DNA of 64,000 nt from a virus (IMGVR_UViG_3300020601_000007:1-64000), one strand, 5' to 3'. Shown: positions 11,956 through 46,330, counted from the stretch's first letter. Translations and numbers: made by a program. The notes: generated from the letters alone by a model not told the origin.

Positions 11956-12510
11956 TCACAGGTGCGTATTTCTGAAAAGGGCTGTATCAATGACAGGGGT
12001 TTCATCAGTTTGGGGGTGGTGAAATCCCCAGCCCCACTTTCCCCTCTTATCGCATACCGGTTCAGGTCCCGACGGCATAGGTCGAGCCCATTGGGGGTCC
12101 TCTGCGAGTAGGCGATTTCTGAATGCTTCAATCTTCGCTTGCAGGTCTTCTGCATTTTGCTCAGAAAGCATCCCAATCACCTGTCGCATGCACTGTTGTT
12201 GGTCAACAATCAGGGCATAGAGGCGGTATTGGTCTTTTCTTAGGGCAGCGTGGTCGTCTTTGAGCGCGTTGTATTTTGCACTCACGGCACGAAGAAAGGT
12301 TTCCTTGGTTTCCAGTTCCTTTCCGATTACCTGACAATGAGCCATCAGTTCAGTTTTGTCCCTCTGCAACTTCGCTAAAGCGTCATTGGACTGCTTCAAT
12401 TTCTCGCACGTTGAGTCGTGGACACTTTGAAGAGCCTTGAGTTGCTCACTGAGAGGGATGATTGTGCGTGGGGTATTTCCCACGTTGAGTCGATTCATAA
12501 AGGTCGACAC
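11956..12510 (-). CDS. coiled-coil protein; N-terminus shared with ORF 23440..23958
   Basis: Motif GTG; MSTFMNRLNVG. Confidence 0.7.
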   Translation of the reverse strand: MSTFMNRLNVGNTPRTIIPLSEQLKALQSVHDSTCEKLKQSNDALAKLQRDKTELMAHCQVIGKELETKETFLRAVSAKYNALKDDHAALRKDQYRLYALIVDQQQCMRQVIGMLSEQNAEDLQAKIEAFRNRLLAEDPQWARPMPSGPEPVCDKRGKWGWGFHHPQTDETPVIDTALFRNTHL

Positions 12511-19223: not shown

Positions 19224-19688
19224 TCAGAACCCTCCTTTGGAGAACGTCGCTTCGTAGCAGGTGTTTCCTTCTTCGTCGACGACTTTCTTCAGTGTGTGCT
19301 TCTTGAAGCCCTTCTTTTTCAATCCATGCTTCACAAATGCGTGGTTGGTCTTTTGCAGAACAGCAGATACCACGGTAGCGCGGCTGGTGTTTTCGATGTC
19401 GGCTTCTTGGATTTGCTTTCGGTTGTGTCCGACCGCATACCAATCTGCTACGACTTCGTAGTTACCAGTTTCTGTGTTTGCTTCAAAGCCGATGTCACCA
19501 GAATTGCCAAGCCGGACAACAATGTCCGCCTGCATCTGGCGTCCGCTTCGTTCACCACGAACGGGCAGTTTCTCGCCCTCATTCGCTACGAGGACGCATT
19601 GGTCCCCAAACATTTCCTGAAGGGCCTCAATGAGGTGTTCCTTCTTCCACACTTCAAGTGTGGTGGGTGTCTTTCTAACAACTGACAC
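19224..19688 (-). CDS. DUF1257 (Ycf35-like) protein
   Basis: LIEALQEM...ADIVV...DIGF...YEVVADWY; motif GTG at 19688. Confidence 0.75.
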   Translation of the reverse strand: MSVVRKTPTTLEVWKKEHLIEALQEMFGDQCVLVANEGEKLPVRGERSGRQMQADIVVRLGNSGDIGFEANTETGNYEVVADWYAVGHNRKQIQEADIENTSRATVVSAVLQKTNHAFVKHGLKKKGFKKHTLKKVVDEEGNTCYEATFSKGGF

Positions 19689-19737: not shown

Positions 19738-19768
19738 GTTTTCTTTGTTCGTAGGTCGTGTAACGGTT

Positions 19769-19842
19769 GCCCCGTAGGGCGGAAAAGGCCGCTCAAGCAG
19801 CCTTGGCTGCAAGAGAAGCGTTGTTCAGCACAGAGTGCTGGA
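19769..19842 (-). ncRNA. structured repeat B, copy 1 of 7 (others ~22901, 25571, 26196, 27072, 27641, 28387)
   Basis: Three hairpins: stem with UCU loop, GCAGCC-AA-GGCUGC, GCCC-UACG-GGGC; covariation between copies. Confidence 0.65.
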
Positions 19843-19865
19843 AGCCGACAGGGGTCGGGGCGTTC

Positions 19866-21245: not shown

Positions 21246-21382
21246 TCACTTCCGTTGTGCGCCTGTTCCTGCTGTTTGTTCTTCGGTTTTCGAGGAACGT
21301 ATCCAGTAGGGTTTGCAGTTTTGAGTGATTGCGTCAGATTCGCAGGTTTGCGGTTCTGATTTTTCTTCGGTGCAGGTTGCAC
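21242..21382 (-). CDS. small basic peptide (46 aa)
   Basis: Motif GTG at 21382 with perfect GTGCA-ACC-TGCAC hairpin; stop overlaps the next ATG. Confidence 0.45.
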   Translation of the reverse strand: MQPAPKKNQNRKPANLTQSLKTANPTGYVPRKPKNKQQEQAHNGSE

Positions 21383-21904
21383 GATTGACTTACGGGTGGA
21401 GCGACGGTTTGCTGAACCGACCGCTCCGGGCAGGAGGCTTTGAATGCCTGCGAGGGCACCTCCCTATGTCTGACCTTGGTGTAGCGTTCGTCCCACGAAA
21501 CAACACATGTGCAAGCACATGGCTGTCGGAGTTCGATACCCTTACATGAAATCCCCGAAGGCGGGTTAAGCCTCCATTCACGCTCTCATTCCTTCAGCAC
21601 ACCATGTGGGACGGTCAGTCACGAATGAGAGCATTCATGATGTGCTGCGATTGTTACGGGTGGGACTGCTGCTCCGCACAGCAGCCCCGGCGAGACACTG
21701 CAAAGGTGAAGAGCAGCGTCAAGGTCTTGGTTGTTTGTCCCCGGGAACGAATCCCTTCGGCGCATCCACAAGACAACGGATAACGCACAACGATTGACGA
21801 ATGTTCCAATCAGTCCACAGCCGCCCTAATCGGAGACGACGGCTTGTGGGCCAATGGGCGTATTTGGGCACCTTCCCTCGAATAAATCCAAGTTCCAGCG
21901 ACCA

Positions 21905-21945
21905 CGCAAAAGAAAAACGGTCAGCAAATTTGCATCTGCTGACCA
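21905..21945 (-). terminator. hairpin plus TTTTTCTTTTGCG terminator-like element
   Basis: GGTCAGCAGAT...ATTTGCTGACC stem followed by a U-tract. Confidence 0.55.
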
Positions 21946-22197
21946 TTCCTCTCCAATTGACGACTGGCAACCCTCACGAGGTAAATCACCTCGGTATTGG
22001 GTTTGCCGGACGAGACTGCCTTGCTTGGCGGCTTGTTGGTTTTTTCGCCGCAGCATCGTTCTCTCGATGCTTATGGGGTGGAGAAACAAGTCCGTTTCAC
22101 CCCGAACCCTCCGTTCGGGTTCTTTCAAGTCCTCTTGCCCTTTTGCCTGTCGGCAGGGAAAGACCCTACCGGGTCTTTTGAGGCTTAAACAGTCTCA

Positions 22198-22473
22198 AAC
22201 GATTGGCTACCCTCCGGAGGAATAATCCTCCTTTGGGTGCCACATGCTGCGAGCCCCATAGTGGCAAGGGGGGCAATTCGTCACCGCCCGCAGCACTAAC
22301 TGAGCATGGTGTGCCACCACCATTGATTGCTCAGATAACGATTGGCTACCCGCCGGAGGAATAATCCTCCTTTGGGTGCCACATGCTGCGCTCTCCCCAT
22401 AGTGGCATGGGTCAATGTGCACGTCAGGACTTGACGGTGTCGCAGCACTAACTGAGCATGGTGCCCAGATAAC
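22198..22473 (-). ncRNA. two tandem copies of pseudoknotted structured repeat D
   Basis: UGCUGCG/CGCAGCA stem; CCC(C)/GGG(G) hairpin whose loop UGCCAC can pair with downstream GUGGCA; GGAGGA/UCCUCC hairpin; third copy at 31025. Confidence 0.65.
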
Positions 22474-22487
22474 GACTGAGGGTCGTC

Positions 22488-22530
22488 TCCCCTCCAGTGT
22501 ATATACGCTGGAAGGAGTGATAACACTCAA
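22488..22530 (-). promoter_or_regulatory. promoter-like repeat C, copy 1
   Basis: CCCCTCCA(G/T)TGTATATACGCTG plus GTGATA(A/G)CAC; 4 copies in the window. Confidence 0.6.
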
Positions 22531-22837
22531 GAAAACCTCTCCCTTTCAAGCCTCAATTCCGTCGAATTGTCGGTCTTGAGTGGTTGAGGTGCCTCTGAAC
22601 ATGTTGTTTCGTTGGGCCGTTGATACCATCTCAGGCTTGACCGAACGTATGTTCGTGGCTCAACCGTGGTGAGGCTCAGACTTGCCAGAGTCATCTCCAC
22701 GGAAGGAACAGTTAGCAATCCGGGCCCGTGCACTGTTCAAACAGCGGGCTTCGGTTATCATAGGGCTCTCAGCAGGGGAGACGGTTCACGCCTCCGGGCC
22801 GAGAGGAATATCCCCTCAAACGGGTGGAGAGGTTGTT

Positions 22838-22879
22838 CCCCTCCATTGTATATACGCTGCAAGAAGTGATAGCACTCAC
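22838..22879 (-). promoter_or_regulatory. promoter-like repeat C, copy 2
   Basis: Same TATA core and GTGATAGCAC site. Confidence 0.6.
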
Positions 22880-23010
22880 GCAGGAATACATGTAACGGTT
22901 GCCCCGTAGGGCGGAAAAGGCCGCTCAAGCAGCCTTGGCTGCGTGAGAAGCGTTGTTCAAGTCAGAGACCTGAGAGAGAAGACAGTGCAGTGTGTTGAGC
23001 ACTCAAATGC

Positions 23011-23427
23011 TCAGCCGTTCCCATATCGTGTTGGCCACGAAGCAGGGTCGCCTTGACTGTTCTTGATTGCGTCTCGCATCTCATCGCTGAGGTCGAGGAG
23101 CGTATCAGCACAGTTCGTGCAGCAGCGGTGCCCGTTGAACACACCGAGGGTGTGTGCGGGCTTGCGGCAAAAGTAGCACTTGTTGTCGTAGGTTCCTCCA
23201 TTGTAAATGGAGACCTCGATTCCGTCCTTGTAGCACCGCCACTTTGGTGTCCGTGGGGTTCTCGGGATGGTGTAGGTCTCGCATTCATGGCATCGTCCAC
23301 ATGTGCAGTCGGTTCGGATGAGTGAGAGTGCTCCCACCATCGTGCGAAGGCTCCTGTTGAACTCTTCGTTGTCTTCTTGTGGAGAGGAATCCCCCTCTCC
23401 CGGGGTTGCGTCATTGTTGGTTGACAC
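23011..23427 (-). CDS. zinc-finger protein with shared leader A
   Basis: MSTNNDATPGEGDSSP; CxC/CxxC motifs; motif GTG. Confidence 0.7.
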   Translation of the reverse strand: MSTNNDATPGEGDSSPQEDNEEFNRSLRTMVGALSLIRTDCTCGRCHECETYTIPRTPRTPKWRCYKDGIEVSIYNGGTYDNKCYFCRKPAHTLGVFNGHRCCTNCADTLLDLSDEMRDAIKNSQGDPASWPTRYGNG

Positions 23428-23439
23428 GAATGAGACCAG

Positions 23440-23958
23440 TCATTGACTGGGCTCGGTTTTGAAAATGAATCCTTGGTCTCGTCCTCGGGTTGGTCTGGCT
23501 GGAGGTTTTGCACTCCAGTAGTCCTCCAGCCTACTGGAGTGAGGTTTTGCACTCCAGTAGTCCTCCGAGATTTTCATTTCGAGTTCTTGGCGGCGTTGTT
23601 TCACCTTGTAAAGGAAGTTTCTGTGAAACCCCTTTTTCAAGTCTTCAATAGCCTCTTCTCTGCGTTTCTCCGCCCACTCGAACGGAGTTGCACGGTGGCC
23701 ATACTTCTCGATTTTTTCGATAAAAATCGGGTTGTGGCAACTGAGCCCGTTGAAGAGGTTAGCGATGGCCGCTTTTGTGTAGCCCACGGGGGGCTTTGGG
23801 AGGCATGCCACGGCAGCCATGCTTGCTGTAAAAACATCAAGCATGTTCGCAGGGGACTTCCACCGGTATTCATTTTCGTGTTGATTGACAGAAGGCTGTT
23901 CAGCCTTTGCCGTGCGTGGGGAAGTCCCCACGTTGAGTCGATTGATAAAGGTCGACAC
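23440..23958 (-). CDS. hypothetical protein with EDYWSAKP duplication
   Basis: Motif GTG at 23958 (alternative ATG at 23988). Confidence 0.65.
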   Translation of the reverse strand: MSTFINRLNVGTSPRTAKAEQPSVNQHENEYRWKSPANMLDVFTASMAAVACLPKPPVGYTKAAIANLFNGLSCHNPIFIEKIEKYGHRATPFEWAEKRREEAIEDLKKGFHRNFLYKVKQRRQELEMKISEDYWSAKPHSSRLEDYWSAKPPARPTRGRDQGFIFKTEPSQ

Positions 23959-23987
23959 GATTGACGAATTGAGGTCATTCTCAGCCA

Positions 23988-24236
23988 TCAGGCTTCGACG
24001 TATTCCTCGTAGATGTATTCGTCCGTCTCAATCCGTAGTTTGAGTTGGGACGCAGATGCAATCTGAAATTTCGGAACAATTCGTCCGCTTTCAGTGCATT
24101 CAGTGCACGGTTCAAAGAGGTTCTTATCGGATGTCTCCCAGCAAGTGGGGCATTTCCAAAGTGGAAACCTCATGTCATGTGCGTCGATTTGGCCCTTGCA
24201 TCCGCAGGGGCATTGGTGTCTCCCATCATGTGACAC
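23988..24236 (-). CDS. small Cys-rich protein
   Basis: Motif GTG; CPCGC, CPTC, CTEC. Confidence 0.65.
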   Translation of the reverse strand: MSHDGRHQCPCGCKGQIDAHDMRFPLWKCPTCWETSDKNLFEPCTECTESGRIVPKFQIASASQLKLRIETDEYIYEEYVEA

Positions 24237-24249
24237 GAATGGAGAACCG

Positions 24250-24843
24250 TCATTGACAGTCCTCCGGGTTGTGTAAAAGTTCAGCGCAATCGAAGTTTGC
24301 TTCGATATACCAAGTCAGTTCCGTTGGCTTGATGCCGGGGCGATGACCGAAGGCGATTGATACCTCCTTTTCTCCCCAAAGTCCGAACCAACGGACATTC
24401 AGTTGTCCGAGCGGCCAAATCGTCCATCTCTGGTTTGGTCCCCAATATTCCGACGTATGGAATCTTCTGCCCCACTCTCGACAGGCGTCAAGGGTATAGG
24501 GCGATTCCTCAATGCGGGTTTGGTTATCCATGCAGCGACAGCGCTTTATTTCGCCATCGTAGCCGACAGTTTGGGGGTGGTTGACCTTCCCCCGGTAGCA
24601 TCCGGCTCTGTGATAAATAGACGTTTCTTTGTCCTTGTAAAAGTTCATAGAAAGAATTTCTTGGTCGCAGTCAGGGCAGTGGAGGGACAAGCCACCGAGG
24701 TTCTCTCGGATATGCGTTGCTCCACAGCAAAGGAATTCTGGCGTGCAAGGCCAATATCCGTCGCTATCGCATCCTTTCATGTGCGCCAACTTTTTGATTT
24801 TCAAAGGCTCTTGAGCCTCTGTGATTGCGTCATTGGATGACAC
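24250..24843 (-). CDS. Cys-rich hypothetical protein
   Basis: Motif GTG at 24843. Confidence 0.65.
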   Translation of the reverse strand: MSSNDAITEAQEPLKIKKLAHMKGCDSDGYWPCTPEFLCCGATHIRENLGGLSLHCPDCDQEILSMNFYKDKETSIYHRAGCYRGKVNHPQTVGYDGEIKRCRCMDNQTRIEESPYTLDACREWGRRFHTSEYWGPNQRWTIWPLGQLNVRWFGLWGEKEVSIAFGHRPGIKPTELTWYIEANFDCAELLHNPEDCQ

Positions 24844-24856
24844 GAATGAAGGAGGG

Positions 24857-25168
24857 TCATTGACCGTCCTTCTCACGCTCCTCGCTTTGGAGCATGCCTT
24901 CATAGAGGCGAACAGCCTCCAGAAAGGGTTTGAGCAGAGCATCACGCTGTTCCTCATTGAGGTAGCGTGGTTTGCTCCAATAAGGCAAAGGTCCCATAAC
25001 GAACTTGAATGGGTTGTGCAAAAATTGCTCATAAGTCAAGTTGATGTGCTGAAGCACACTCGATGGAACTTTTCTGCCTTTGGTGATTACCCCCTCGAAC
25101 TCACGAGAACTCGGAACTCGGGGGAAGTCGGGAATCTCCCGACCTTGGGGGGTGCGACTTTGAGTCAC
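24857..25168 (-). CDS. hypothetical protein
   Basis: Motif GTG start. Confidence 0.65.
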   Translation of the reverse strand: MTQSRTPQGREIPDFPRVPSSREFEGVITKGRKVPSSVLQHINLTYEQFLHNPFKFVMGPLPYWSKPRYLNEEQRDALLKPFLEAVRLYEGMLQSEEREKDGQ

Positions 25169-25566
25169 GAATGGTCAGTGGTTTTGGCCACTGCCTTTTG
25201 GCGTTTTACCGCCATTTTTGTCCGACAGTCGAGGCAATACAGTTCGCCTTGTCCCGTGCGGTTTTCACACCGCCACGGACCGAAAACGGTCTTGTTGTTG
25301 CCGAAGTGCACTTTCCACCCCTCGTGCGAGGAATAGAAGTGTATTGGTCCTCCATTGTGGTTGAAACAAAGTGAATCAACGCGCCAAATGTCCTTCTGTT
25401 GAAAGGTTTGGGTAGAGGATTTGTCGGGGGTCCAGAAGCCGATTCCTTGAACCATCGGGGTGCGGTTGATGTATTTCACACTCCTGAGGTATCCGAGGCG
25501 CTCGGCTCGTTCGATTGCTCCCCTCAAAAATGGAAGAGGGGTTAGACGAAATGACAATTTTGTCAC
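25165..25566 (-). CDS. hypothetical protein with C-terminal zinc ribbon
   Basis: Variant CATCC-GTG at 25566, downstream of a repeat B copy. Confidence 0.6.
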   Translation of the reverse strand: MTKLSFRLTPLPFLRGAIERAERLGYLRSVKYINRTPMVQGIGFWTPDKSSTQTFQQKDIWRVDSLCFNHNGGPIHFYSSHEGWKVHFGNNKTVFGPWRCENRTGQGELYCLDCRTKMAVKRQKAVAKTTDHS

Positions 25567-25654
25567 GGATGGCCGCTCAAGCAGCCTTGGCTGCAAGAGA
25601 AGCGTTGTAACACGTCAGAGACGTGGATGCACAAAGCAACTGAACCACTGATGG

Positions 25655-26191
25655 TCAGTCCCAGTCGTCACAGCCGCGGGGGCAATACTTGAGGACGTAG
25701 CCCCTCCAGAGGACGTTTGCTCCGGTCAGAAGGTTGTAGTGGTAGCGGGGGTAGTCCGTCTGAGCAATCAAGTGCTCAATGGGTTCCCATCGCTTCACAA
25801 CGTTCGGTTTCCACTGTGTCGAGTCGTCAGTCCCGAAGGTTCTGACAGCGAAGTCAGCCAGCAGTTGCGTGAAAAGCCGCACATCTGCGCGGCAGTCGTA
25901 GCAGAAATCCTTTTCCTTTCGGAAACGTTCTGCCCACTCTTCTTTCGATGCGAAGAGTTCGCTGACAATGGACTTCACCTTTTCCTCGTCGATGACACGC
26001 ATGCCGTCTTCGGTGGAAAATGCTTCCATCTGAATCCGCATTCCCGCTCCGCCCACGTTGAGGGACATGAGGTGGATTGCTTCAGGGTCGAGCAGTGCTT
26101 CTTGGAACACGATGTCGAAGACATCGAGTCTGTTGCTTGTGTTTGGAGAGGAATCCCCCTCTCCCGGGGGTGCTTCGTTTTTGGTTTGCAC
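25655..26191 (-). CDS. hypothetical protein with shared leader A
   Basis: CACCC-GTG start; VQTKNEAPPGEGDSSP. Confidence 0.7.
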   Translation of the reverse strand: MQTKNEAPPGEGDSSPNTSNRLDVFDIVFQEALLDPEAIHLMSLNVGGAGMRIQMEAFSTEDGMRVIDEEKVKSIVSELFASKEEWAERFRKEKDFCYDCRADVRLFTQLLADFAVRTFGTDDSTQWKPNVVKRWEPIEHLIAQTDYPRYHYNLLTGANVLWRGYVLKYCPRGCDDWD

Positions 26192-26290
26192 GGGTGCCCC
26201 GTAGGGCGAAAGGTCGCTCAAGCAGCCTTGGCCGCAAGAGAAACGTTGTTACAGCACAGAGTGCTGGATGTTGGGCGAAACAACGGAGTC

Positions 26291-27067
26291 TCAGAACTTG
26301 TGGATGACTTCCCACAAGTCGTTCTCACTGAGGTGCGTTCGCACCTGCTTTCGATACGCCGCTTGGGATGGTCGACCGGGCTTCCCCTTGGTAGGGGGTT
26401 CGGTGATACCCAAGTGCGCACGAAGTCGCATGAGGTTGTCGTGGGTCATCACATCGAACAGTTGCTCGAAGTAGATGCCGTCAGTTGGTTCTGCCTTGTT
26501 GAAGTTGCCATCGTCGACAGTAGCGTTCTTCAGGAAGTCCGCTTGGGTGTCTTCGACAATGCGCTCCAGAAGGTAGGCCTGAACCGCTGCGAAATTCTGC
26601 TTCAAGAACTTCGTCGGTTGCTTGTTCCACTTCTGCTCGAACATTCCCTTGTTGGCCGTGGTTTTGACGACCCAGTGGCCATCATCAGCCGCAGGTCCCA
26701 AAATCAAATGTCCGAAAATGGAGTCTCTGAGGAACACAGCAGGCCCATCCTTGTGCATGTGGACAAACCACCAGTTGTCAAAGGAGACACTGAGTGGTCG
26801 GCCACAGCCAAGCATCCCGTGAACATTCGCGTGCTGCTTGAGAGCACGCTGTGCTTGACGTTCTTGGTTGTTCGCTTGCTGGATGGCATGCTTCGTCAGG
26901 TAGGCAAAGTTTCCCTTGCGTGCCATCGCTTCGATGCAAAGGCACATCACCCTGACAAATTCTGTCAGTTGCGTTGTTGTCCAGTGTCCGATAGCATCAG
27001 ACACCTTCGCCGGTGTGTTTGGAGAGGAATCCCCCTCTCCCGGGGGTGCTTCGTTGTTGGTTTGCAC
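26291..27067 (-). CDS. hypothetical protein with shared leader A
   Basis: CATCC-GTG at 27067; the ORF-track extension to 27682 overlaps the neighbouring gene. Confidence 0.7.
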   Translation of the reverse strand: MQTNNEAPPGEGDSSPNTPAKVSDAIGHWTTTQLTEFVRVMCLCIEAMARKGNFAYLTKHAIQQANNQERQAQRALKQHANVHGMLGCGRPLSVSFDNWWFVHMHKDGPAVFLRDSIFGHLILGPAADDGHWVVKTTANKGMFEQKWNKQPTKFLKQNFAAVQAYLLERIVEDTQADFLKNATVDDGNFNKAEPTDGIYFEQLFDVMTHDNLMRLRAHLGITEPPTKGKPGRPSQAAYRKQVRTHLSENDLWEVIHKF

Positions 27068-27167
27068 GGATGCCCCGTAGGGCGAAAGGTCGCTCAAGCA
27101 GTCTTGACTGCAAGAGAAACGTTGTTCAGCACAGAGTGCTGGAATGAAGACTCGTTGGTTGCAGGGT

Positions 27168-27629
27168 TCAGATGTTCCCACAGGAGCAGCGGTTGCCACA
27201 CGACACCCTTCGGTAGTCGTGCTTCTCCTTGCATCCTTTACACATGGGCATGACGGGGGTTCCCCTCCCATTGAATTTCTGCCAAAGGATTGCGCGGTCA
27301 GGGCAACGGACGGTCTTCGCGTCGCAGCCACCGCCAATGCGATAGCCCTTGCATGCGTGGACGCCCAGTTTTTCGAGCGTTTCTTCCGGAACGTTGCCAC
27401 TTGGCACAGTGAGGGAATATCGAGGATTCCCACCGGCTGCCAAAATAGCCCAGTATCGGTCGTGCTCTTCCTGTGGAGAGTCGAGATTTCGGATGTATTT
27501 TTTGATGATATACATCGGATAACCCTGCTCAACGAAGTGGTTTTTCCATTGTTGGTCCGACCACCATTCTCGGTCTTCTTCTGGAGAGGAATCCCCCTCT
27601 CCCGGGGTTGCGTCGTTGTTGGTTGACAC
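27168..27629 (-). CDS. Cys-rich protein with shared leader A
   Basis: Motif GTG; MSTNNDATPGEGDSSP. Confidence 0.7.
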   Translation of the reverse strand: MSTNNDATPGEGDSSPEEDREWWSDQQWKNHFVEQGYPMYIIKKYIRNLDSPQEEHDRYWAILAAGGNPRYSLTVPSGNVPEETLEKLGVHACKGYRIGGGCDAKTVRCPDRAILWQKFNGRGTPVMPMCKGCKEKHDYRRVSCGNRCSCGNI

Positions 27630-27734
27630 GATTGACGGGTGCCCCGTAGGGCGAAAGGTCGCTCAAGCAGCCTTGGCCGCAAGAGAAACGTTGTTCAGCA
27701 CAGAGTGCTGGATGTTGGTCGAAACAAACGAACT

Positions 27735-28382
27735 TCACGCAAAGAGAGCCTCAAGACCATCATGGTCAGGGCGCTCCGATTTGCATTCTGCACAGCAGCC
27801 TTGGTAAGGCAACCACTGGTTCGGCCATCCCGCTTGTAGGGTGATTGGCTTGACCAGTTGCGCTTCGTAGTAGCATTCGGTGCAGATGTATTCGTTTTCA
27901 GTCAGATTCGATTCGCCCTCGACGGGCTCCTTGGTGTCGTTCAGGTTGATGCGATACCAAGTCGGCGTTTCCTTACCCCTGCTCAGCAGTTGCGGTCTGC
28001 GCAAGTAGGTGAAGAACTCAGGGTGGTCAAAAATCAGATAAGCAGTGCTCATCTTCGGAATGAAGGTTGGCCAATTTTTATCAGTCGGGTGAATCCAGCC
28101 ATCTGGCACGTCAGAATCGAGCCGTCGACCATCGCGGTGACCGCCAGCAGCCAAAATCTCGTTGGTGCTGACATGTCCCCAGTATCGACAGTTGACTGAA
28201 TCATCATGATACACATCGTGTGGCCCAGCGTAGTCGTAGAAGACTCGGTCGCCGAAAAGCCTGAATGCTCGAATGTCCCAATCATGGATGTGAATGGTTT
28301 TTCGTTCTCGCGTTGTGTTCAATTGCTTGACAGTTGGAGAGGAATCCCCCTCTCCCGGGGGTGCTTCGTTGTTGGTTTGCAC
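27735..28382 (-). CDS. hypothetical protein with shared leader A and C-terminal CxxC pairs
   Basis: CATCC-GTG at 28382. Confidence 0.7.
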   Translation of the reverse strand: MQTNNEAPPGEGDSSPTVKQLNTTRERKTIHIHDWDIRAFRLFGDRVFYDYAGPHDVYHDDSVNCRYWGHVSTNEILAAGGHRDGRRLDSDVPDGWIHPTDKNWPTFIPKMSTAYLIFDHPEFFTYLRRPQLLSRGKETPTWYRINLNDTKEPVEGESNLTENEYICTECYYEAQLVKPITLQAGWPNQWLPYQGCCAECKSERPDHDGLEALFA

Positions 28383-28481
28383 GGATGCCCCGTAGGGCGA
28401 AAGGCCTCGCAAGCAGCCTTGGCTGGTTGAGAAGCGTTGACAGCACAGAGTGCTGGGATGAAGACTCGATGCTTGCGGAAC

Positions 28482-28724
28482 TCATTCGTCGGTCAGTTCG
28501 AGCAGTTCGCCAATGAGTTCAGGGACAGAGTTTTCTTCTTCGAGCGAAGCGAATTGCTTCTTGATGAAATCCCTGAGAATTACGATGAGACGGTTCTTCA
28601 TGGCGAGGCGGGCCTCAAGTTCGGCCACCTTTTTCATCGCCAGTTGCACGGCATACGAAATTCGAGCATCCTCTTGGGCTTGCTTGAGTTCTTCGGGTGT
28701 GCGTGGTCCCCATCCTCCCATCAT
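28482..28724 (-). CDS. small coiled-coil protein
   Basis: GGAGG RBS; ATG overlaps the stop of the 31-aa peptide. Confidence 0.6.
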   Translation of the reverse strand: MMGGWGPRTPEELKQAQEDARISYAVQLAMKKVAELEARLAMKNRLIVILRDFIKKQFASLEEENSVPELIGELLELTDE

Positions 28725-28816
28725 TCATCCCTCCGTGAGGGCTGGTCGCATGTCTTGCAGTCTTCTTGTGGAGAGGAATCCCCCTCTCCCGGGGTTGCGT
28801 CGTTGTTGGTTGACAC
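28721..28816 (-). CDS. 31-aa peptide MSTNNDATPGEGDSSPQEDCKTCDQPSRRDE (leader A plus CxxC core)
   Basis: Manual translation from motif GTG at 28816. Confidence 0.5.
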   Translation of the reverse strand: MSTNNDATPGEGDSSPQEDCKTCDQPSRRDE

Positions 28817-28823
28817 GAATGAC

Positions 28824-29663
28824 TCACTGGACGAGAGCGCAGTGCCCCATAGGAGCACGGCGTTCAAACCACTCGTCGAGGAAAGCCTTGAACTTCTCAA
28901 CGGTGCTCACGTCTCGGTCGTGCTTGTCAAAAACACAGCCGGACAGTTGCCCGTTGGGGTCAATGCTCAGTTCCTCATAGCCAGCGTAGCACTGGCTGAG
29001 CCCCAGCATGTGATGTGTGCAGGGCTCGGTGAGTTGGTTTTGGGTTTTTGTCCCAGTGATGTCGAGGTGGTCCAGTTCAAACGCTTCTTGAAAGAGTTCC
29101 TCAAAGCGCTCCATGGAGCCGTAGTTTTGCGCAAGCGGCTTCATCATCAGGTGAGAAATGCTGCTTGAACGCCTGTCGAGTCGCTTGATGAAGGAAGGGT
29201 CCTTCACCCAGTCAAAGACTTCGACAGAATATGTCAGATTGACATTGAAGTGTCCCTTCCAGCCGTTGTCGTCGAGGTAGGCGGCTGCCTTCTCAACGAA
29301 CGTTGTTGCTTGTTCTGGGTTCGCAAACCGCTCCGTATCAACAGACATCGAGATGATGTCGAAGTTGCGGAGCAGCGTTGGGCTCATGCTCAAAATCACT
29401 TGGTGGGTCGTCGTCATGTTGACAACCATACCGAGTTCCTTTGCCACCTCAGCAAGACCAAGGTGTTCGGCCATCCTCGATTGAGGGTTGACCAAGAGCG
29501 CCAGTTCGTTGAATCCAGCGGTCGATGCCGTCTCAAGGATGTCCTCGAAATACGACATGGGCAATTCGGCTTGAAGGAGTTCTTCAAGGCCGGGAATATC
29601 AGTCAGATAGCATCCAGTGCAACTGAGTCTGCAATCCCGGGTGGGGTGTAAGAAAAGTCTCAC
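28824..29663 (-). CDS. radical SAM enzyme with twitch/SPASM-like C-terminus
   Basis: CRLSCTGC (CxxxCxxC); CYAG...SIDPNGQLSGC. Confidence 0.85.
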   Translation of the reverse strand: MRLFLHPTRDCRLSCTGCYLTDIPGLEELLQAELPMSYFEDILETASTAGFNELALLVNPQSRMAEHLGLAEVAKELGMVVNMTTTHQVILSMSPTLLRNFDIISMSVDTERFANPEQATTFVEKAAAYLDDNGWKGHFNVNLTYSVEVFDWVKDPSFIKRLDRRSSSISHLMMKPLAQNYGSMERFEELFQEAFELDHLDITGTKTQNQLTEPCTHHMLGLSQCYAGYEELSIDPNGQLSGCVFDKHDRDVSTVEKFKAFLDEWFERRAPMGHCALVQ

Positions 29664-29786
29664 GATTGACGAATGCCGTCCCGCCGAGCGGGGAGGAGGG
29701 CGCAGGTGGGCGTCACCTCCTGCCCCAAAGGGCGGCGGGTTGGGTTGGCATTGGGCTCACAGCATCTGGTCAATTCATTCAGCGAA

Positions 29787-30275: not shown

Positions 30276-30976
30276 TCTGGCATCGCCTGACTTTTCTTTT
30301 CATTACGGGTGGGACGGGGATGCACACTGAGAATTTTCGTGCACGCTCCGCCCCCTTTCGTGCACGGGGTGCACGCTTTTTGGGGTTTGGGGGGTTCTCT
30401 CAGATTTGGCGTAGTCCTAATTCATAGCCGGTCCCCCCGGACGATTGACGGGTGGGGCGGTTTCAACATTGTCTGCGCATCACAATGCTCAGCCCCTTAC
30501 AGTGCAAGTGCACTGGATAAGTGGGGCACTGCCCCACTTGTTGTCGCCTTTTCATCGGCGCAACGATTGACGGGTTCACATCTGTTTTTCACCGGCCTTC
30601 CTCGTGCATTATCGCCTTCACCCGAAGTGGTCAGGCGCATTTTGTAGCCCGAAAGGGCATCAATGCACGCACAATGGTCTCTGCCCTTGCGGACAGGTAG
30701 TCGGTGTTCTGTTCGCCCCACATGGGGCGCCATCGCATTACTTGCGGCCATGAGGCACAAGGCGTTTCCGCCGAGGCCCACGCTTCTAATTTCTGGCCCT
30801 CTCAGATGTGAGAGTTGAGCGTGTTAATCGTTAAAATCGGCACTTTCACTACCGGGCGAACACTCTATGAGCATCGCTCTGGTTCGCTTTTCGTTCCAGT
30901 GCCTAAAGTCGATTGAACGACTTTGCGGGTGGAGGGGGTCTACCATGTTAGGGCTGTCTCCAGCACATAGGTGACC

Positions 30977-31016
30977 TCCCCCTCCATTGTATATACGCTG
31001 ACAGCAGTGCTATCAG
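30977..31016 (-). promoter_or_regulatory. promoter-like repeat C, copy 3
   Basis: cccctccattgtatatacgctg; operator-like site inverted (gtgctatca). Confidence 0.55.
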
Positions 31017-31024
31017 TCGTGCAT

Positions 31025-31193
31025 AACGATTGGCTACCCGCCGGAGGCTTCTGGCCGACCTCTAAGGCCGTCGTCAGAAGAAGTCTCCTCCTTTGGGTGC
31101 CACATGCTGCGAGCCCCCATAGTGGCAAGGGGGAGCAAAACTTTCAGAGAAAGCCCCCCGCAGCACTACCTGAGCATGGTGCCCAGATAACGG
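31025..31193 (-). ncRNA. structured repeat D, copy 3
   Basis: Conserved core; variable stems replaced by other base-paired stems. Confidence 0.65.
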
Positions 31194-31232
31194 TTGGAGG
31201 GGGTTCGGGAAAACACATACAAAATAACCCTT

Positions 31233-31280
31233 CCCCCTCCATTGTATATACGCTGGAAAGGGTGATAGCACTCAAGAAAA
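31233..31280 (-). promoter_or_regulatory. promoter-like repeat C, copy 4 (head of the left gene array)
   Basis: Same TATA core and GTGATAGCAC site. Confidence 0.6.
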
Positions 31281-31480
31281 GGTGGGGTGGCGCATGAAGA
31301 ACAGTCAAGAGAAACTGGCTCGGGGTGCGCCGCCCCGGAGAGTCCCCGGGCGAACTGCCGTTGGAGAACTCGAAAATAAAGGTTGGGAGTGTGCGGAAAC
31401 CATGGGCCCCAAACCCAGAAAGCCCACCCCGGGCCACACACCCCCGGAGGTGCCGGGGCATGCGATGGAACAAGGACGAC

Positions 31481-42832: not shown

Positions 42833-43153
42833 TCAAATCACCTTGCAGCGCAGAGTCTCCTGCCCGCACTTTGGACACTGCGTAGGCGTATGAAGTTCTT
42901 TGGGCTCCCCGAGCCCTGTCATTTGGTTGCGGTAGTCGCAGGGACCGGTGCAGATGAACAGAAATGTCCGTGCCTTTCCGAGGAGCACCTCGCCAAAGCG
43001 CTCGAATTGTGCACACACCTTCAGCATCTCCGAATCGGTGATTTCCAGTTCAGCCACCTTGATTCCCTTTGCTTTCACGATGAAATTCCAGCCGTTTGCC
43101 ACCTGTCCGACATTGAAACTCATTCCGTTCTTCTCAAGAATTTTCTCGCTCAC
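42833..43153 (-). CDS. zinc-ribbon protein
   Basis: CTGPC...CPKCG; GTGA overlap with the recombinase stop. Confidence 0.6.
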   Translation of the reverse strand: MSEKILEKNGMSFNVGQVANGWNFIVKAKGIKVAELEITDSEMLKVCAQFERFGEVLLGKARTFLFICTGPCDYRNQMTGLGEPKELHTPTQCPKCGQETLRCKVI

Positions 43154-44061
43154 AACAATGCCTCCCATTCGTATTCGTGATTTTCTCCATCCTCAGTCTG
43201 ATATTTTCCTTTGTAGAATTCTTCCTTTTGGATGATGCCTCGGATTGTTGGGCCGGTCCAAACCTTCCCCTCCTGACGGGTGGGAACGTTCCTTTCATCC
43301 AGCGCCTTTGCCACCTCAGAATAGGTCATCCCTGAGCGATGGAGAGCGAATATTTCTTTCAAAATGGGAACCTCTGAAGGCTCTGGAACCAGCATTCCCT
43401 TGTCCTCACTTTCCTCCGTCTTAGCGAAGAGCGATGCATAGCCGTATGGTGGACGGCCAGTGTGTTTCCCAGCGTTCTTTTTGCCTCGCAGTCCTGCTTT
43501 CGTGCGTGCCTTGATGAGGTCCACCTCCATGGCCGCAAAGGCTGTCATGATGCGGAAAATAAGCATCCCAACCGGGGTCGTAGTGTCAACTTGAATGTCA
43601 AGAAAAGCGAAGTCTCGGTCAGCCGTTCGCAGCGTATCCGCCCACTCACCAGCGTTCCTGACGTTGCGGTGGAGGCGGTCCATTTTGGCCCCGACAACCA
43701 CATCCCATTCATTCATTTCCTCCATCATCTGCTGATAGGCTGGCCGTGAAACGTTCGTTCCTGAGAAACCCTCATCCCGATACACCTTGACGACCTCCCA
43801 GCCTTGCATGGCGCAATAGGCACGGCACTCTCGCACCTGCTGGTCGATGGAGGTCTCCGATTGAAGGTCGGTTGATACCCGTCCGTAAATGACGGCTCGA
43901 ATCGGTTCCTCAGATGTTTCAGAACCCCCCCTTGTCAGAAGGGGGGCAAATGACAGGATTCCAACAGGGATGGTATAAGCAAGTGAATGAATCAGGTATG
44001 CAATCATCGGTTTGCCCTCATAATCAGGGGGTAAAGCGGTGGAAATAAAGGTTGGTGCCAT
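43150..44061 (-). CDS. serine recombinase (resolvase plus recombinase domain)
   Basis: YGRVSTDLQ catalytic Ser, DEGFSG, RPAYQQM, DRLHR, GRPPYGY; start uncertain. Confidence 0.9.
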   Translation of the reverse strand: MAPTFISTALPPDYEGKPMIAYLIHSLAYTIPVGILSFAPLLTRGGSETSEEPIRAVIYGRVSTDLQSETSIDQQVRECRAYCAMQGWEVVKVYRDEGFSGTNVSRPAYQQMMEEMNEWDVVVGAKMDRLHRNVRNAGEWADTLRTADRDFAFLDIQVDTTTPVGMLIFRIMTAFAAMEVDLIKARTKAGLRGKKNAGKHTGRPPYGYASLFAKTEESEDKGMLVPEPSEVPILKEIFALHRSGMTYSEVAKALDERNVPTRQEGKVWTGPTIRGIIQKEEFYKGKYQTEDGENHEYEWEALL

Positions 44062-46014: not shown

Positions 46015-46256
46015 CCTTCCCGAGGAAGCAACAGCGAGAGTGTGCCAACCTTCACTGCCGACGGCTGATTTCCAACCACTACAAGAATTGCGTGAGGTGC
46101 GGAACATGCGCACGCTTGGAGAGGGAGGCGAATGAATGATTGTCAAGCGCTGGTGCCGCCGTTGCGGTCAACAGAAGCCCCTCAAGGATTTCGATGAGGC
46201 AGGAGACCACCTCCGCCGATATTGCAGCGAGAGATGCGTCTCAGGAATCAAGTGAG

Positions 46257-46330
46257 CGCCCCTGCCCGGATTTGAACCGGGGTTATCGGCTCCGCAAGCC
46301 GATGTGATGTCCAAACTACACTACAAGGGC
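46257..46330 (-). tRNA. tRNA-Arg(GCG)
   Basis: Cloverleaf: acceptor GCCCTTG/CAGGGGC, anticodon arm TCGGC-TTGCGGA-GCCGA, T arm CCCGG-TTCAAAT-CCGGG; no encoded CCA; TTTAT box about 28-32 nt upstream. Confidence 0.92.

Follow-up and report, generated by a model that had tools for sequence, protein, structure and literature searches.

The window analysed here, 64 000 nucleotides long, is the first 64 kb of a 110-kb element of the "magrovirus group D" type from marine group II archaea, and in it six ORFs with unrelated bodies begin with one common short leader. Our preferred reading, which we hold with moderate confidence, is that this archaeal virus-like element has a portable gene-start module, of which the six leaders are copies, and that the module doubles as a recombination patch. 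Each start would be punctuated by an upstream hairpin, CA(A/T)TC, GUG, about 20 nt of unstructured A/C-rich codons, and a hairpin of 6–9 bp. The PGEGDSSP leader would be one sequence family that recombination or gene conversion has distributed and homogenised in a hypervariable island. Its translation product would be a disordered N-terminal tail, while the sequence would be held by the nucleic acid, chiefly the hairpin stem, and not by the peptide. With the intergenic repeats B and C, which are structured, it would make up a ready-made expression signal, and it would provide a brief stretch of homology where cassettes, each made of start, cargo and intergenic module, are gained, lost and rearranged from strain to strain.

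The element and its gene set

The element encodes PolB, a thermosome, a serine recombinase (43150–44061, 14 kb from the leader array) and an unsplit Rpb1-like gene. PolB, thermosome, resolvase and RNA polymerase A are all four found together, as in magrovirus group D (Philosof et al. 2017, PMC5434244; Xu et al. 2023, PMC10160649), which likewise comes from marine or brackish habitats; the type is assigned because the gene set is that of the group D description in PMC5434244. No head-tail genes were returned by a Pfam sweep. In a term search of these two papers, 'repeat' occurs in neither text, 'start codon' is absent from PMC5434244 and 'hypervariable' from PMC10160649. Marine group II archaea rank with the most numerous microbes of the ocean, and all knowledge of their viruses comes from metagenomes; the present locus gives a view of how such an element renews its accessory genes.

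The shared leader and its genes

The hairpin sequence GGAGAGGGGGATTCCTCTCC occurs exactly six times, always on the minus strand (at 23381, 26145, 27021, 27583, 28336 and 28770), against zero copies expected by chance, and there is no further copy elsewhere in the 110-kb record. Its two 7-bp arms form a perfect inverted repeat around an asymmetric spacer of 6 nt; all six copies have the same orientation and occupy codons 10–16 of the leader-bearing ORFs. Every copy is embedded in a block of 48 nt that begins with GTG and ends with CCA (GTG plus 15 codons) and is translated as V/M-(S/Q)-T-(N/K)-N-(D/E)-A-(T/P)-PGEGDSSP. The leaders are 87–100% identical over positions +4 to +48 and fall into type 1 (starts 23427, 27629 and 28816) and type 2 (26191, 27067 and 28382). 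The bodies behind them are pairwise 18–32% identical, which is the background level, and BLASTP detected no similarity among the bodies, or between a body and any other ORF of the genome. The earlier note's description of six ORFs with a common leader, unrelated bodies and invariant hairpin DNA is thus borne out. The genes concerned are as follows.

23380–23427, minus strand: leader type 1 (GTG to CCA; hairpin 23381–23400), opening a 138-aa Cys-rich ORF (23011–23427)
26144–26191, minus strand: leader type 2, opening a 178-aa ORF (25655–26191) with known orthologs
27020–27067, minus strand: leader type 2, opening a 258-aa ORF (26291–27067) with known homologs and an AF2 model
27582–27629, minus strand: leader type 1, opening a 153-aa ORF (27168–27629)
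28335–28382, minus strand: leader type 2, opening a 215-aa ORF (27735–28382) with known orthologs
28721–28816, minus strand: leader type 1, opening an ORF of only 31 aa
28824–29663, minus strand: 279-aa gene immediately upstream of the array, with a CxxxCxxC motif and weak similarity to radical SAM maturases

The TGA of the 31-aa ORF overlaps (ATGA, 28721–28724) the ATG of an 80-aa ORF (28482–28724), and this sixth copy is either a remnant cassette or an upstream coupling ORF. Several of the bodies are small and rich in CxxC pairs. The leader is predicted by AF2 to be a disordered, acidic tail; the model of the 27067 cargo reaches a pLDDT of 79 with residues 1–18 disordered, and the models of two cargos differ, one being alpha/beta and the other, a poor model, mostly helical. 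For the 279-aa gene the best family match is TIGR04317 (E = 0.007, 15.6 bits against a cut-off of 380), and Pfam gave nothing. A 463-aa ORF at 26291–27682 was rejected as a chance read-through and is not the real gene. Annotators should beware that gene callers mis-start or fuse these ORFs; read-throughs of 225, 431 and 463 aa are on record.

The earlier note had asked that misassembly at the repeats be excluded. The leader itself is genuine and not an assembly artefact, since it was found in independent assemblies (the related locus L010, and proteins from ENA, JGI and NCBI) and in 18 DNA runs, each holding 80–97% of the sampled words. Logan contigs are interrupted at the repeats and therefore give no confirmation of the order of cassettes in the present assembly.

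Intergenic repeats and island borders

Repeat B, a three-hairpin element, is present in seven copies in the gene block. As the earlier note had noticed, four of them stand ahead of leaders; the other three (19766, 22898 and 25566) lack the shared leader.

26193–26271, minus strand: repeat B (three hairpins), upstream of the leader at 26191
27068–27145, minus strand: repeat B, upstream of the leader at 27067, with a compensatory GCAGT/ACTGC change in helix 2
27638–27715, minus strand: repeat B, upstream of the leader at 27629, with a 7-nt insert before CAATCGTG
28384–28459, minus strand: repeat B, upstream of the leader at 28382
25566–25629, minus strand: repeat B without helix 3, leading into a 133-aa gene (GTG start at 25566) that has its own leader and hairpin
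22898–22975, minus strand: repeat B without leader, at the border of the island with a noncoding repeat region
19766–19844, minus strand: repeat B without leader, upstream of a gene starting at 19688
29661–29755, minus strand: repeat C, an intergenic module before the radical-SAM-like gene, which in L010 replaces repeat B ahead of the 28382 cargo
22198–22535, no strand assigned: left noncoding repeat unit, bracketing the variable island
31023–31280, no strand assigned: right noncoding repeat unit, in direct orientation relative to the left one

In repeat B 97% of cells are paired, and both partners have changed in six of the 17 pairs. Its covariation score of 0.332 compares with 0.123 in shuffles, and none of 500 shuffles reached it. 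Repeat B is therefore structured. The junctions that carry it are 88–105 nt long.

A general gene-start signal

The motif CAWTCGTG occurs 38 times on the minus strand of the window, compared with about seven copies expected on both strands, and in most cases it supplies the in-frame GTG of a long ORF in a minus-strand gene block at 0–30 kb. The average start consists of an upstream hairpin, CA(A/T)TC, GTG, an A/C-rich spacer, and a second hairpin that begins 19–24 nt after the GTG. Over 31 starts the 30-nt folding energy is −8.3 kcal/mol at +18/+21 and −8.2 kcal/mol at −33/−30, compared with −4.9 kcal/mol inside genes and −3.2 kcal/mol in the spacer (paired Wilcoxon, p = 2e-4, 5e-4 and 1e-3). 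A strong downstream hairpin is missing at about one-third of the CAWTCGTG starts. Most genes of the block have start-proximal hairpins, which are of unrelated sequence and encode unrelated peptides. Serial genes have their stop 7–21 nt before the next start or overlapping it, and the upstream hairpin often contains the TGA stop of the preceding gene.

The leader is thus not a separate device; its six copies are one homogenised family of the element's general start module. A second leader family, with two members in genes 11 kb apart, repeats the pattern of the six-copy family.

23900–23958, minus strand: second leader family, member 1 (MSTFINRLNVG.., hairpin CGTGGGGA/CCCACG)
12452–12510, minus strand: second leader family, member 2, with an 89% identical leader and an unrelated body

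Nucleic acid or peptide as the probable target of constraint

The constraint on the leader looks to act on the nucleic acid rather than on the peptide, because the stems are invariant while loop and spacer vary, because an ortholog has another peptide and another hairpin in the same place, and because compensatory changes are seen both in repeat B and in further start hairpins. The 14 stem bases are unchanged in eight DNA copies (six from the window and two from L010), among which the loop (GGGATT to GGGTTT) and the spacer vary. In orthologous proteins (dozens were read, and 55 sequences from four families were fetched) only the loop residues change within the hairpin part, D>V and S>T; residues 2, 4, 6 and 8 are free to vary, and the residues that stay constant coincide exactly with those encoded by the stem. 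The P0003/L011 ortholog of the 28382 cargo, which is 58% identical, carries the peptide MSNNNEKEDQSRGPAQ and the hairpin GGACCA/TGGTCC at the same distance. In other start hairpins CCACAC/GTGTGG corresponds to CCAACC/GGTTGG, and CCCCTC/GAGGGG to GCCCTC/GAGGGC. Alternatively, the identity of the stem could stem from recent common descent or from sequence-specific protein binding.

Sequence comparison also shows that the leader is translated, because conservation of the body begins immediately after it, because L010 has CTG where the window has the only in-frame TTG, and because the L011 ortholog has an ATG start at the equivalent position. All six cargos are in frame with the leader, and a purely regulatory module would have no need of in-frame fusion unless selection filters the fusions. 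The comparison of sense and antisense folding does not separate RNA from DNA; we infer that the hairpin acts at the RNA level, by helping to select the start codon, by reinitiation or by regulating GUG starts of a polycistronic RNA. A bolder proposal, which we put forward only tentatively, is that the locus has an as yet undescribed archaeal-virus punctuation system, hairpin-CAAUC-GUG-spacer-hairpin, which would have two roles: through processing, reinitiation or the binding of a factor it would direct how GUG-initiated genes are expressed from polycistronic RNA, and it would set the points of in-frame cassette exchange. The 48-nt leader with its 7-bp stem offers a compact handle on GUG-initiated gene expression in an uncultured archaeal system.

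It is unlikely that the leader is primarily a peptide tag sending diverse small proteins to one destination, be it virion, membrane, protease or modifying enzyme. Such a tag would suit a translated, disordered and acidic leader joined in frame to all six bodies, and orthologs of the 26191 cargo retain PGEGD(S/T)SP down to 78% identity. It would also have a precedent in the capsid targeting sequence (CTS) of T-even internal proteins (reviewed in PMC3012670), a short conserved N-terminus that is all these diverse, fast-changing small proteins have in common in T4. However, the CTS peptide is functional and is removed by the prohead protease, whereas here conservation tracks the RNA/DNA stem, the free residues lie outside what the stem encodes, most other genes of the block have start hairpins with unrelated peptides, and there is no known cleavage motif, partner or packaging. 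Of the targeting tag suggested in the earlier note, the shared N-terminal peptide on unrelated proteins stands, but the idea is weakened since the 58%-identical ortholog keeps a hairpin in place without the peptide.

Cassette exchange between strains

The DNA comparison across strains covers two related loci, L010 and L011. L010 is 95–99% identical to the window in DNA, yet its cassette order differs: radical-SAM-like gene, 27067 cargo, repeat C and 28382 cargo, plus two extra genes. Three breakpoints could be mapped cleanly against L010, all at the ..CGTG start motif or its flanks (at ..CGTG itself, or at a 19-nt direct repeat ending in CAATCGTGAG), and the leader travels with its cargo. L011 has a single repeat B between the orthologs of the 28382 cargo and of the 25566 gene, where the window has B-cargo-B-cargo-B-cargo-B, so that this three-cassette difference is bounded by repeat B. 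Between strains the bodies are well conserved and the leader is the part replaced. Cassette number and order thus differ among relatives, and cargo homologs with another leader exist (P0003), which upholds the earlier view of leader and repeat B as reusable modules on unrelated cargo. The accompanying idea of a stand-alone capture platform with its crossover just after the hairpin does not hold, as the mapped breakpoints lie at the start motif and start hairpins are general in the block.

The subtype alleles (S/Q, N/K, D/E and T/P) occur in mosaic combinations on one same cargo, which indirectly suggests crossovers inside the leader; recurrent mutation could also produce such mosaics in proteins. 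One short contig of 1.4 kb, possibly chimeric, suggests a joint inside the leader. We infer that exchange proceeds by homology-driven recombination rather than through a dedicated enzyme.

Integrons are the familiar case of a dedicated enzyme: an attC hairpin lies 3' of each promoterless ORF, the crossover falls within attC, and the tyrosine recombinase IntI is encoded beside the array. The present locus shares with them arrays of unrelated cassettes, each with a hairpin-forming repeat, and a content that varies among relatives. We nevertheless regard it as improbable that the hairpin serves the element's serine recombinase as its own site for site-specific recombination, of integron-like or invertase/resolvase-like type, at which cassettes are cut out and put in. 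The perfect inverted repeat with its asymmetric spacer, the six direct copies, the recombinase gene, the differing cassette order, the reassortment of subtypes against cargo and the contigs that hint at joints within the leader would all fit. Against it, the hairpin lies in the 5' coding region and the three clean breakpoints fall outside it, no copy is found near the recombinase gene, in the window the type-1 and type-2 spacers stay coupled to what follows the hairpin on its 3' side (QED/EED versus NT), and other genes have unrelated hairpins at the same position. Pfam scans of ORFs of at least 110 aa and of the island genes found neither a tyrosine recombinase or integrase nor a HUH transposase, and the Logan contigs contain no circle junction beyond what the repeats themselves explain.

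Descent of the six genes from old tandem paralogs, with bodies diverged past recognition and only the 5' end retained, is more doubtful still. The genes do stand in tandem, several have small bodies with many CxxC pairs, and remote homologs of the 27067 cargo open with MGTTND.., which is akin to the leader but has diverged from it. However, the bodies, 122 to 242 aa long, have no mutual BLASTP similarity, the two models differ in architecture (the second being poor), the second leader family links genes 11 kb apart, and conserved bodies with replaced leaders are the opposite of what paralogy predicts. Least credible of all is a RiPP-type recognition sequence for the adjoining radical-SAM-like enzyme acting on Cys-rich products: this enzyme has its CxxxCxxC motif and weak maturase match and lies directly ahead of the array in the window and L010, and L011 lacks both it and the leader, but that co-occurrence comes from two lineages only, the match is far under the family cut-off, the leader has just 16 aa, start hairpins are general in the block, and products of 138–258 aa, one folding at pLDDT 79, are not short precursor peptides.

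Comparison with known systems

The closest likeness to the portable start module is with the PeSL (promoter-early stem-loop) cassettes of T4-type phages (Arbiol et al. 2010, PMC2839356; Comeau et al. 2014, PMC4122927), short conserved stem-loop cassettes repeated between non-essential orphan genes of a hyperplastic region. Here the six leaders, seven copies of repeat B and second leader family are repeated likewise, and the island content differs among the window, L010 and L011. In both systems the end points of indels and replacements between close strains fall in the cassettes, in our case at the L010 breakpoints and the B-bounded L011 difference; the motor proposed for PeSLs is recombination between nearby copies (PMC2839356; PMC4122927). 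A further PeSL trait is mini-circles that arise by exchange between neighbouring cassettes; here joints in Logan contigs run through the repeats themselves and are possible graph artefacts. In contrast, a PeSL combines a sigma-70 early promoter with a terminator stem-loop, neither of which is involved in this archaeal host. Our module, hairpin-CAWTC-GTG-spacer-hairpin, has its GUG start codon within CA(A/T)TCGTG and reaches into the coding region as a translated 16-aa leader, so that exchanges must keep the reading frame. Exchange of unrelated cassettes at a conserved, structured start module is convergent with the shuffling of T4-type regulatory cassettes, with the difference that the module is partly translated. 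If the proposed punctuation system were real, it would be an archaeal-virus counterpart of integrons and PeSLs that operates at the start codon.

The spacing of serial genes, together with the ATGA overlap at 28721–28724, resembles archaeal translational coupling by termination-reinitiation (Huber et al. 2019, PMC6728339; PMC10666635). Coupling as described requires overlaps or very short gaps and has neither a conserved CAAUC-GUG motif nor flanking hairpins, whereas here both accompany the starts and the junctions with repeat B extend to 88–105 nt.

A leader shared by six genes

The 20-mer GGAGAGGGGGATTCCTCTCC occurs six times in the window, always on the minus strand, where chance would give none; no further copy was found in the whole record or in an IMG/VR scan. 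Each copy lies inside a 48-nt block, here called the leader, which runs from GTG to CCA, encodes (S/Q)T(N/K)N(D/E)A(T/P)PGEGDSSP and holds a 7-bp hairpin. The leaders are of two types (genes, leaders and the cargos, or bodies, that follow the leaders are named by their start coordinates):

Starts 23427, 27629 and 28816, minus strand: leader type 1
Starts 26191, 27067 and 28382, minus strand: leader type 2

The earlier note had described six ORFs with a common leader and an invariant hairpin, fused to unrelated bodies, with the intergenic repeat B ahead of four of the leaders. All of this was confirmed. The six copies of the 20-mer are exact and the leaders are 87–100% identical; the bodies stand at background identity, and BLASTP detected no similarity of the bodies to one another or to any other ORF, as expected if they are not simple paralogs. 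Five of the six leaders head ORFs of 138–258 aa. No cargo matched Pfam, NCBIfam or the Atlas search, and the 27067 cargo had no Foldseek match in the PDB. A protein search with the leader alone (region 1–40) returned the query's own cluster and nothing else, no relatives of five proteins or alignments emerged from IMG/VR scans, and two GTDB genome scans gave no matches.

The sixth leader opens only a 31-codon ORF (28721–28816, minus strand; ..QEDCKTCDQPSRRDE), whose TGA and the ATG of an 80-aa gene (28482–28724, minus strand) overlap as ATGA. The short ORF may be what remains of a cassette, or may act upstream to couple translation of the ATG-started gene. The 80-aa ORF was considered as an ortholog of a 117-aa ORF at the same position in L011, the locus of a distant relative, and this was rejected, the similarity being not significant (E = 0.17). 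Gene callers fuse or mis-start the leader-bearing genes. A 463-aa ORF (26291–27682, minus strand) reads across two cassettes out of frame, and 225-aa and 431-aa read-throughs of repeat B are found among public proteins (P0001, P0021).

General architecture of gene starts

The motif CA(A/T)TCGTG occurs 38 times on the minus strand of the window, compared with about 7 expected on both strands; 37 of these copies fall between 620 and 29668, and most give a long ORF an in-frame GTG. The remaining 80 kb of the element have hardly any copies, so the minus-strand block 620–29668 looks like a separate expression class. In this block the previous stop is TGA in 38 of 43 cases, and the distance from stop to start is 7–21 nt at most junctions and 88–105 nt where repeat B is inserted. 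Folding was examined at 31 CA(A/T)TCGTG starts, two of the three type-1 leaders being omitted so that one sequence was not counted thrice. The 30-nt folding energy has minima of -8.3 kcal/mol at +18/+21 and -8.2 at -33/-30, against -4.9 in in-gene controls, and at -3.2 the first codons have unusually little structure (paired Wilcoxon p = 2e-4, 5e-4 and 1e-3). The spacer after GTG is rich in A/C, and the downstream hairpins, which differ in sequence gene by gene, begin 19–24 nt past GTG in the approximately 12 clearest cases. The leader is one case of this general gene-start architecture, and its PGEGDSSP hairpin is a version of the general start hairpin that is common to six genes. Just ahead of the motif-bearing starts there is, on average, another hairpin, and the previous TGA stop often lies in or beside the loop of this upstream hairpin, e.g. 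CCAGTCAATGACTGG. A reading as stop-codon recoding or a polyprotein was dropped, the upstream TGA being not consistently in frame with GTG; sense versus antisense folding was uninformative as a discriminator of RNA from DNA, since the controls carry the same composition bias.

Leader sharing recurs, since a second family has the same pattern, with leaders 89% identical and unrelated bodies at starts 23958 and 12510:

23900–23958 and 12452–12510, minus strand: second-family leader (MSTFINRLNVG.., own hairpin), genes 11 kb apart

Translation and constraint of the leader

Sequence comparison shows that the leader is translated. Alignments of the 28382-cargo orthologs begin at the first residue past it, the sole in-frame alternative start in the window (TTG) is CTG in the close-strain contig L010, and the distant L011 ortholog has an ATG start at the equivalent position, with MSNNNE.. 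for MQTNNE...

The leader might accordingly be read as a peptide tag of the T4 CTS type (PMC3012670), but this explanation is weakened by the L011 ortholog of the 28382 cargo (P0003, 58% identity), which carries KEDQSRGPAQ in place of APPGEGDSSP and, at equal distance, another hairpin, GGACCA/TGGTCC; a cargo homolog free of the shared leader, for which the earlier note proposed a search, therefore exists. It is also weakened by the pattern of stem versus loop: all eight DNA copies, six from the window and two from L010, have the same 14 stem bases, whereas loop and spacer vary. Dozens of ortholog proteins were read, and their hairpin part shows just two substitutions: D>V, which is a loop-base change in L010 DNA (GAT to GTT), and S>T, whose position in the loop is deduced from the codons alone. 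Compensatory changes separate the window from L011 in other start hairpins (CCACAC/GTGTGG versus CCAACC/GGTTGG; CCCCTC/GAGGGG versus GCCCTC/GAGGGC), at the cost of amino-acid changes. In both cargos modelled with AlphaFold, the leader residues are predicted to be disordered. The constraint on the leader thus appears to track the nucleic acid.

Repeat B

Repeat B is a structured element of three hairpins, present in seven copies in all, three of them without a leader. Across eight copies, including a homolog in L011, 97% of cells pair and both sides are changed in 6 of 17 pairs; the covariation score is 0.332, compared with 0.123 for shuffles (0 of 500 reach it) and <=0.08 for slid partners. 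Repeat B and the leader together give a folding z of -3.6. Searches of Rfam with the leader, repeat B and the flanking noncoding repeats matched no family.

Cassette differences between strains

At the DNA level, the comparison of strains rests on two related loci, L010 and L011. The former is a 3.6-kb contig of a separate assembly (DNA identity 95–99%) with the order two extra genes, rSAM-like gene (28824–29663, minus strand, in the window), 27067 cargo, intergenic repeat C and 28382 cargo. Three breakpoints are mappable: (i) in ..CGTG, where the upstream context of 28816 is joined to the type-2 leader of the 27067 cargo; (ii) past the 27067 stop, with C in place of B up to CAATCGTG; and (iii) at a 19-nt direct repeat, GGCATTCGTCAATCGTGAG, bounding the two extra genes. 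The exact sequence in common at these joints is too short for assembly chimeras. The extra genes (L010 28–1108; 139 and 144 aa) start with leaders VSTIVNTQVENGSTQ and VSGNNHTQEEPASSQ, both of which include a GGAG..CTCC-type hairpin of their own, and were not found in window positions 12000–36000, the stretch compared.

L011 (70–86% identity) keeps the flanks and both noncoding repeat regions, and has other genes in the island between these regions. A single B homolog lies between its orthologs of 28382 and of the 25566 gene, where the window has B-27629-B-27067-B-26191-B. The island genes of L011 (2396–6473) encode a 222-aa nucleoside phosphorylase/MTA nucleosidase-like protein (assigned by eye), a pentapeptide-repeat protein, an 81-aa Cys-rich protein and a P-loop kinase-like protein. 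The noncoding repeat regions bracketing the variable island (21250–22900 and 30300–31300) contain units, 22198–22535 and 31023–31280, that are in direct orientation and 70–85% identical, and are about 85% conserved in L011, compared with about 70% for adjoining genes.

Cassette number and order thus differ in both relatives. The shuffling platform proposed in the earlier note holds in that cassettes vary at these modules, but its crossover just after the hairpin is not supported, the clean L010 breakpoints avoiding the hairpin. The same breakpoints stand against the hairpin as a dedicated recombinase site, as does the lack of any other copy of the site in the rest of the record, although the element does possess a serine recombinase. 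If the six genes were old paralogs, the bodies should have diverged under a retained leader; between strains the bodies are conserved and the leader is replaced, the wrong way round for that model. A RiPP leader for the neighbouring rSAM-like gene fits poorly with products that are folded proteins of 138–258 aa, and the rSAM assignment is very weak.

Leader mosaics and contig joints

Orthologs of the 26191 cargo in at least six other contigs (78–99% identity) all have the leader. Their spacer residues S/Q, N/K, D/E and T/P, the same states that divide the paralogous leader types in the window, occur in mosaic combinations, and all four combinations of position 4 with positions 2, 6 and 8 are found. 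These mosaics on one cargo point to exchange or gene conversion among leader copies.

P0021 (1.4-kb JGI contig) and an RNA-library contig link a 23427-type junction with the body of 27629, and B27067 with that of 28382; these joints are counted as weak, because they pass through repeats and may be chimeric. Sequencing runs were examined as contigs, which break at repeats. Joints 28333>27019 and 22918>25571 lie inside repeats and may be de Bruijn artefacts, and 27712>21000 probably stems from the B copy at 19.8 kb, just outside the stretch to which these contigs were aligned. RNA-library contigs match parts of most cassettes at >=99%, with DNA carry-over possible. One ends in Illumina adapter at 29678, 15 nt before GTG 29663, where the upstream hairpin has its foot; this single observation hints at a discrete RNA end.

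A proposed portable start module

The leader is best explained as a portable start module that is also a recombination patch. The module would comprise hairpin, CAWTC, GUG, spacer and hairpin, and its intergenic part could be either B or C; it would provide accessory genes with expression signals, and its repetition would let copies act as a recombination patch. The hairpin may serve in start-site selection or reinitiation at GUG on a polycistronic RNA (cf. PMC6728339, PMC10666635), or in RNA processing or regulator binding. Such a module would work like the PeSL cassettes of T4-type phages (PMC2839356, PMC4122927), but it has no sigma-70 promoter or terminator, is partly coding and is not a member of the PeSL family.

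Element and host

The window covers positions 1–64,000 of a linear IMG/VR record that is 110,123 bp long. Among its genes are those for an unsplit Rpb1-like RNA polymerase subunit, family B DNA polymerase, thermosome subunit, primase small subunit, AAA ATPase and serine recombinase. This content agrees with published accounts of "magrovirus group D", which give PolB, thermosome, resolvase and RNA polymerase A as its genes and leave its nature undecided (PMC5434244; PMC10160649). A marine group II archaeon is therefore the most likely host, which makes GTG starts plausible. The serine recombinase (43150–44061, minus strand; 303 aa, Resolvase and Recombinase domains) lies 2 kb from the sole tRNA gene, tRNA-Arg (anticodon GCG; 46256–46330), and the two may form an integration module.
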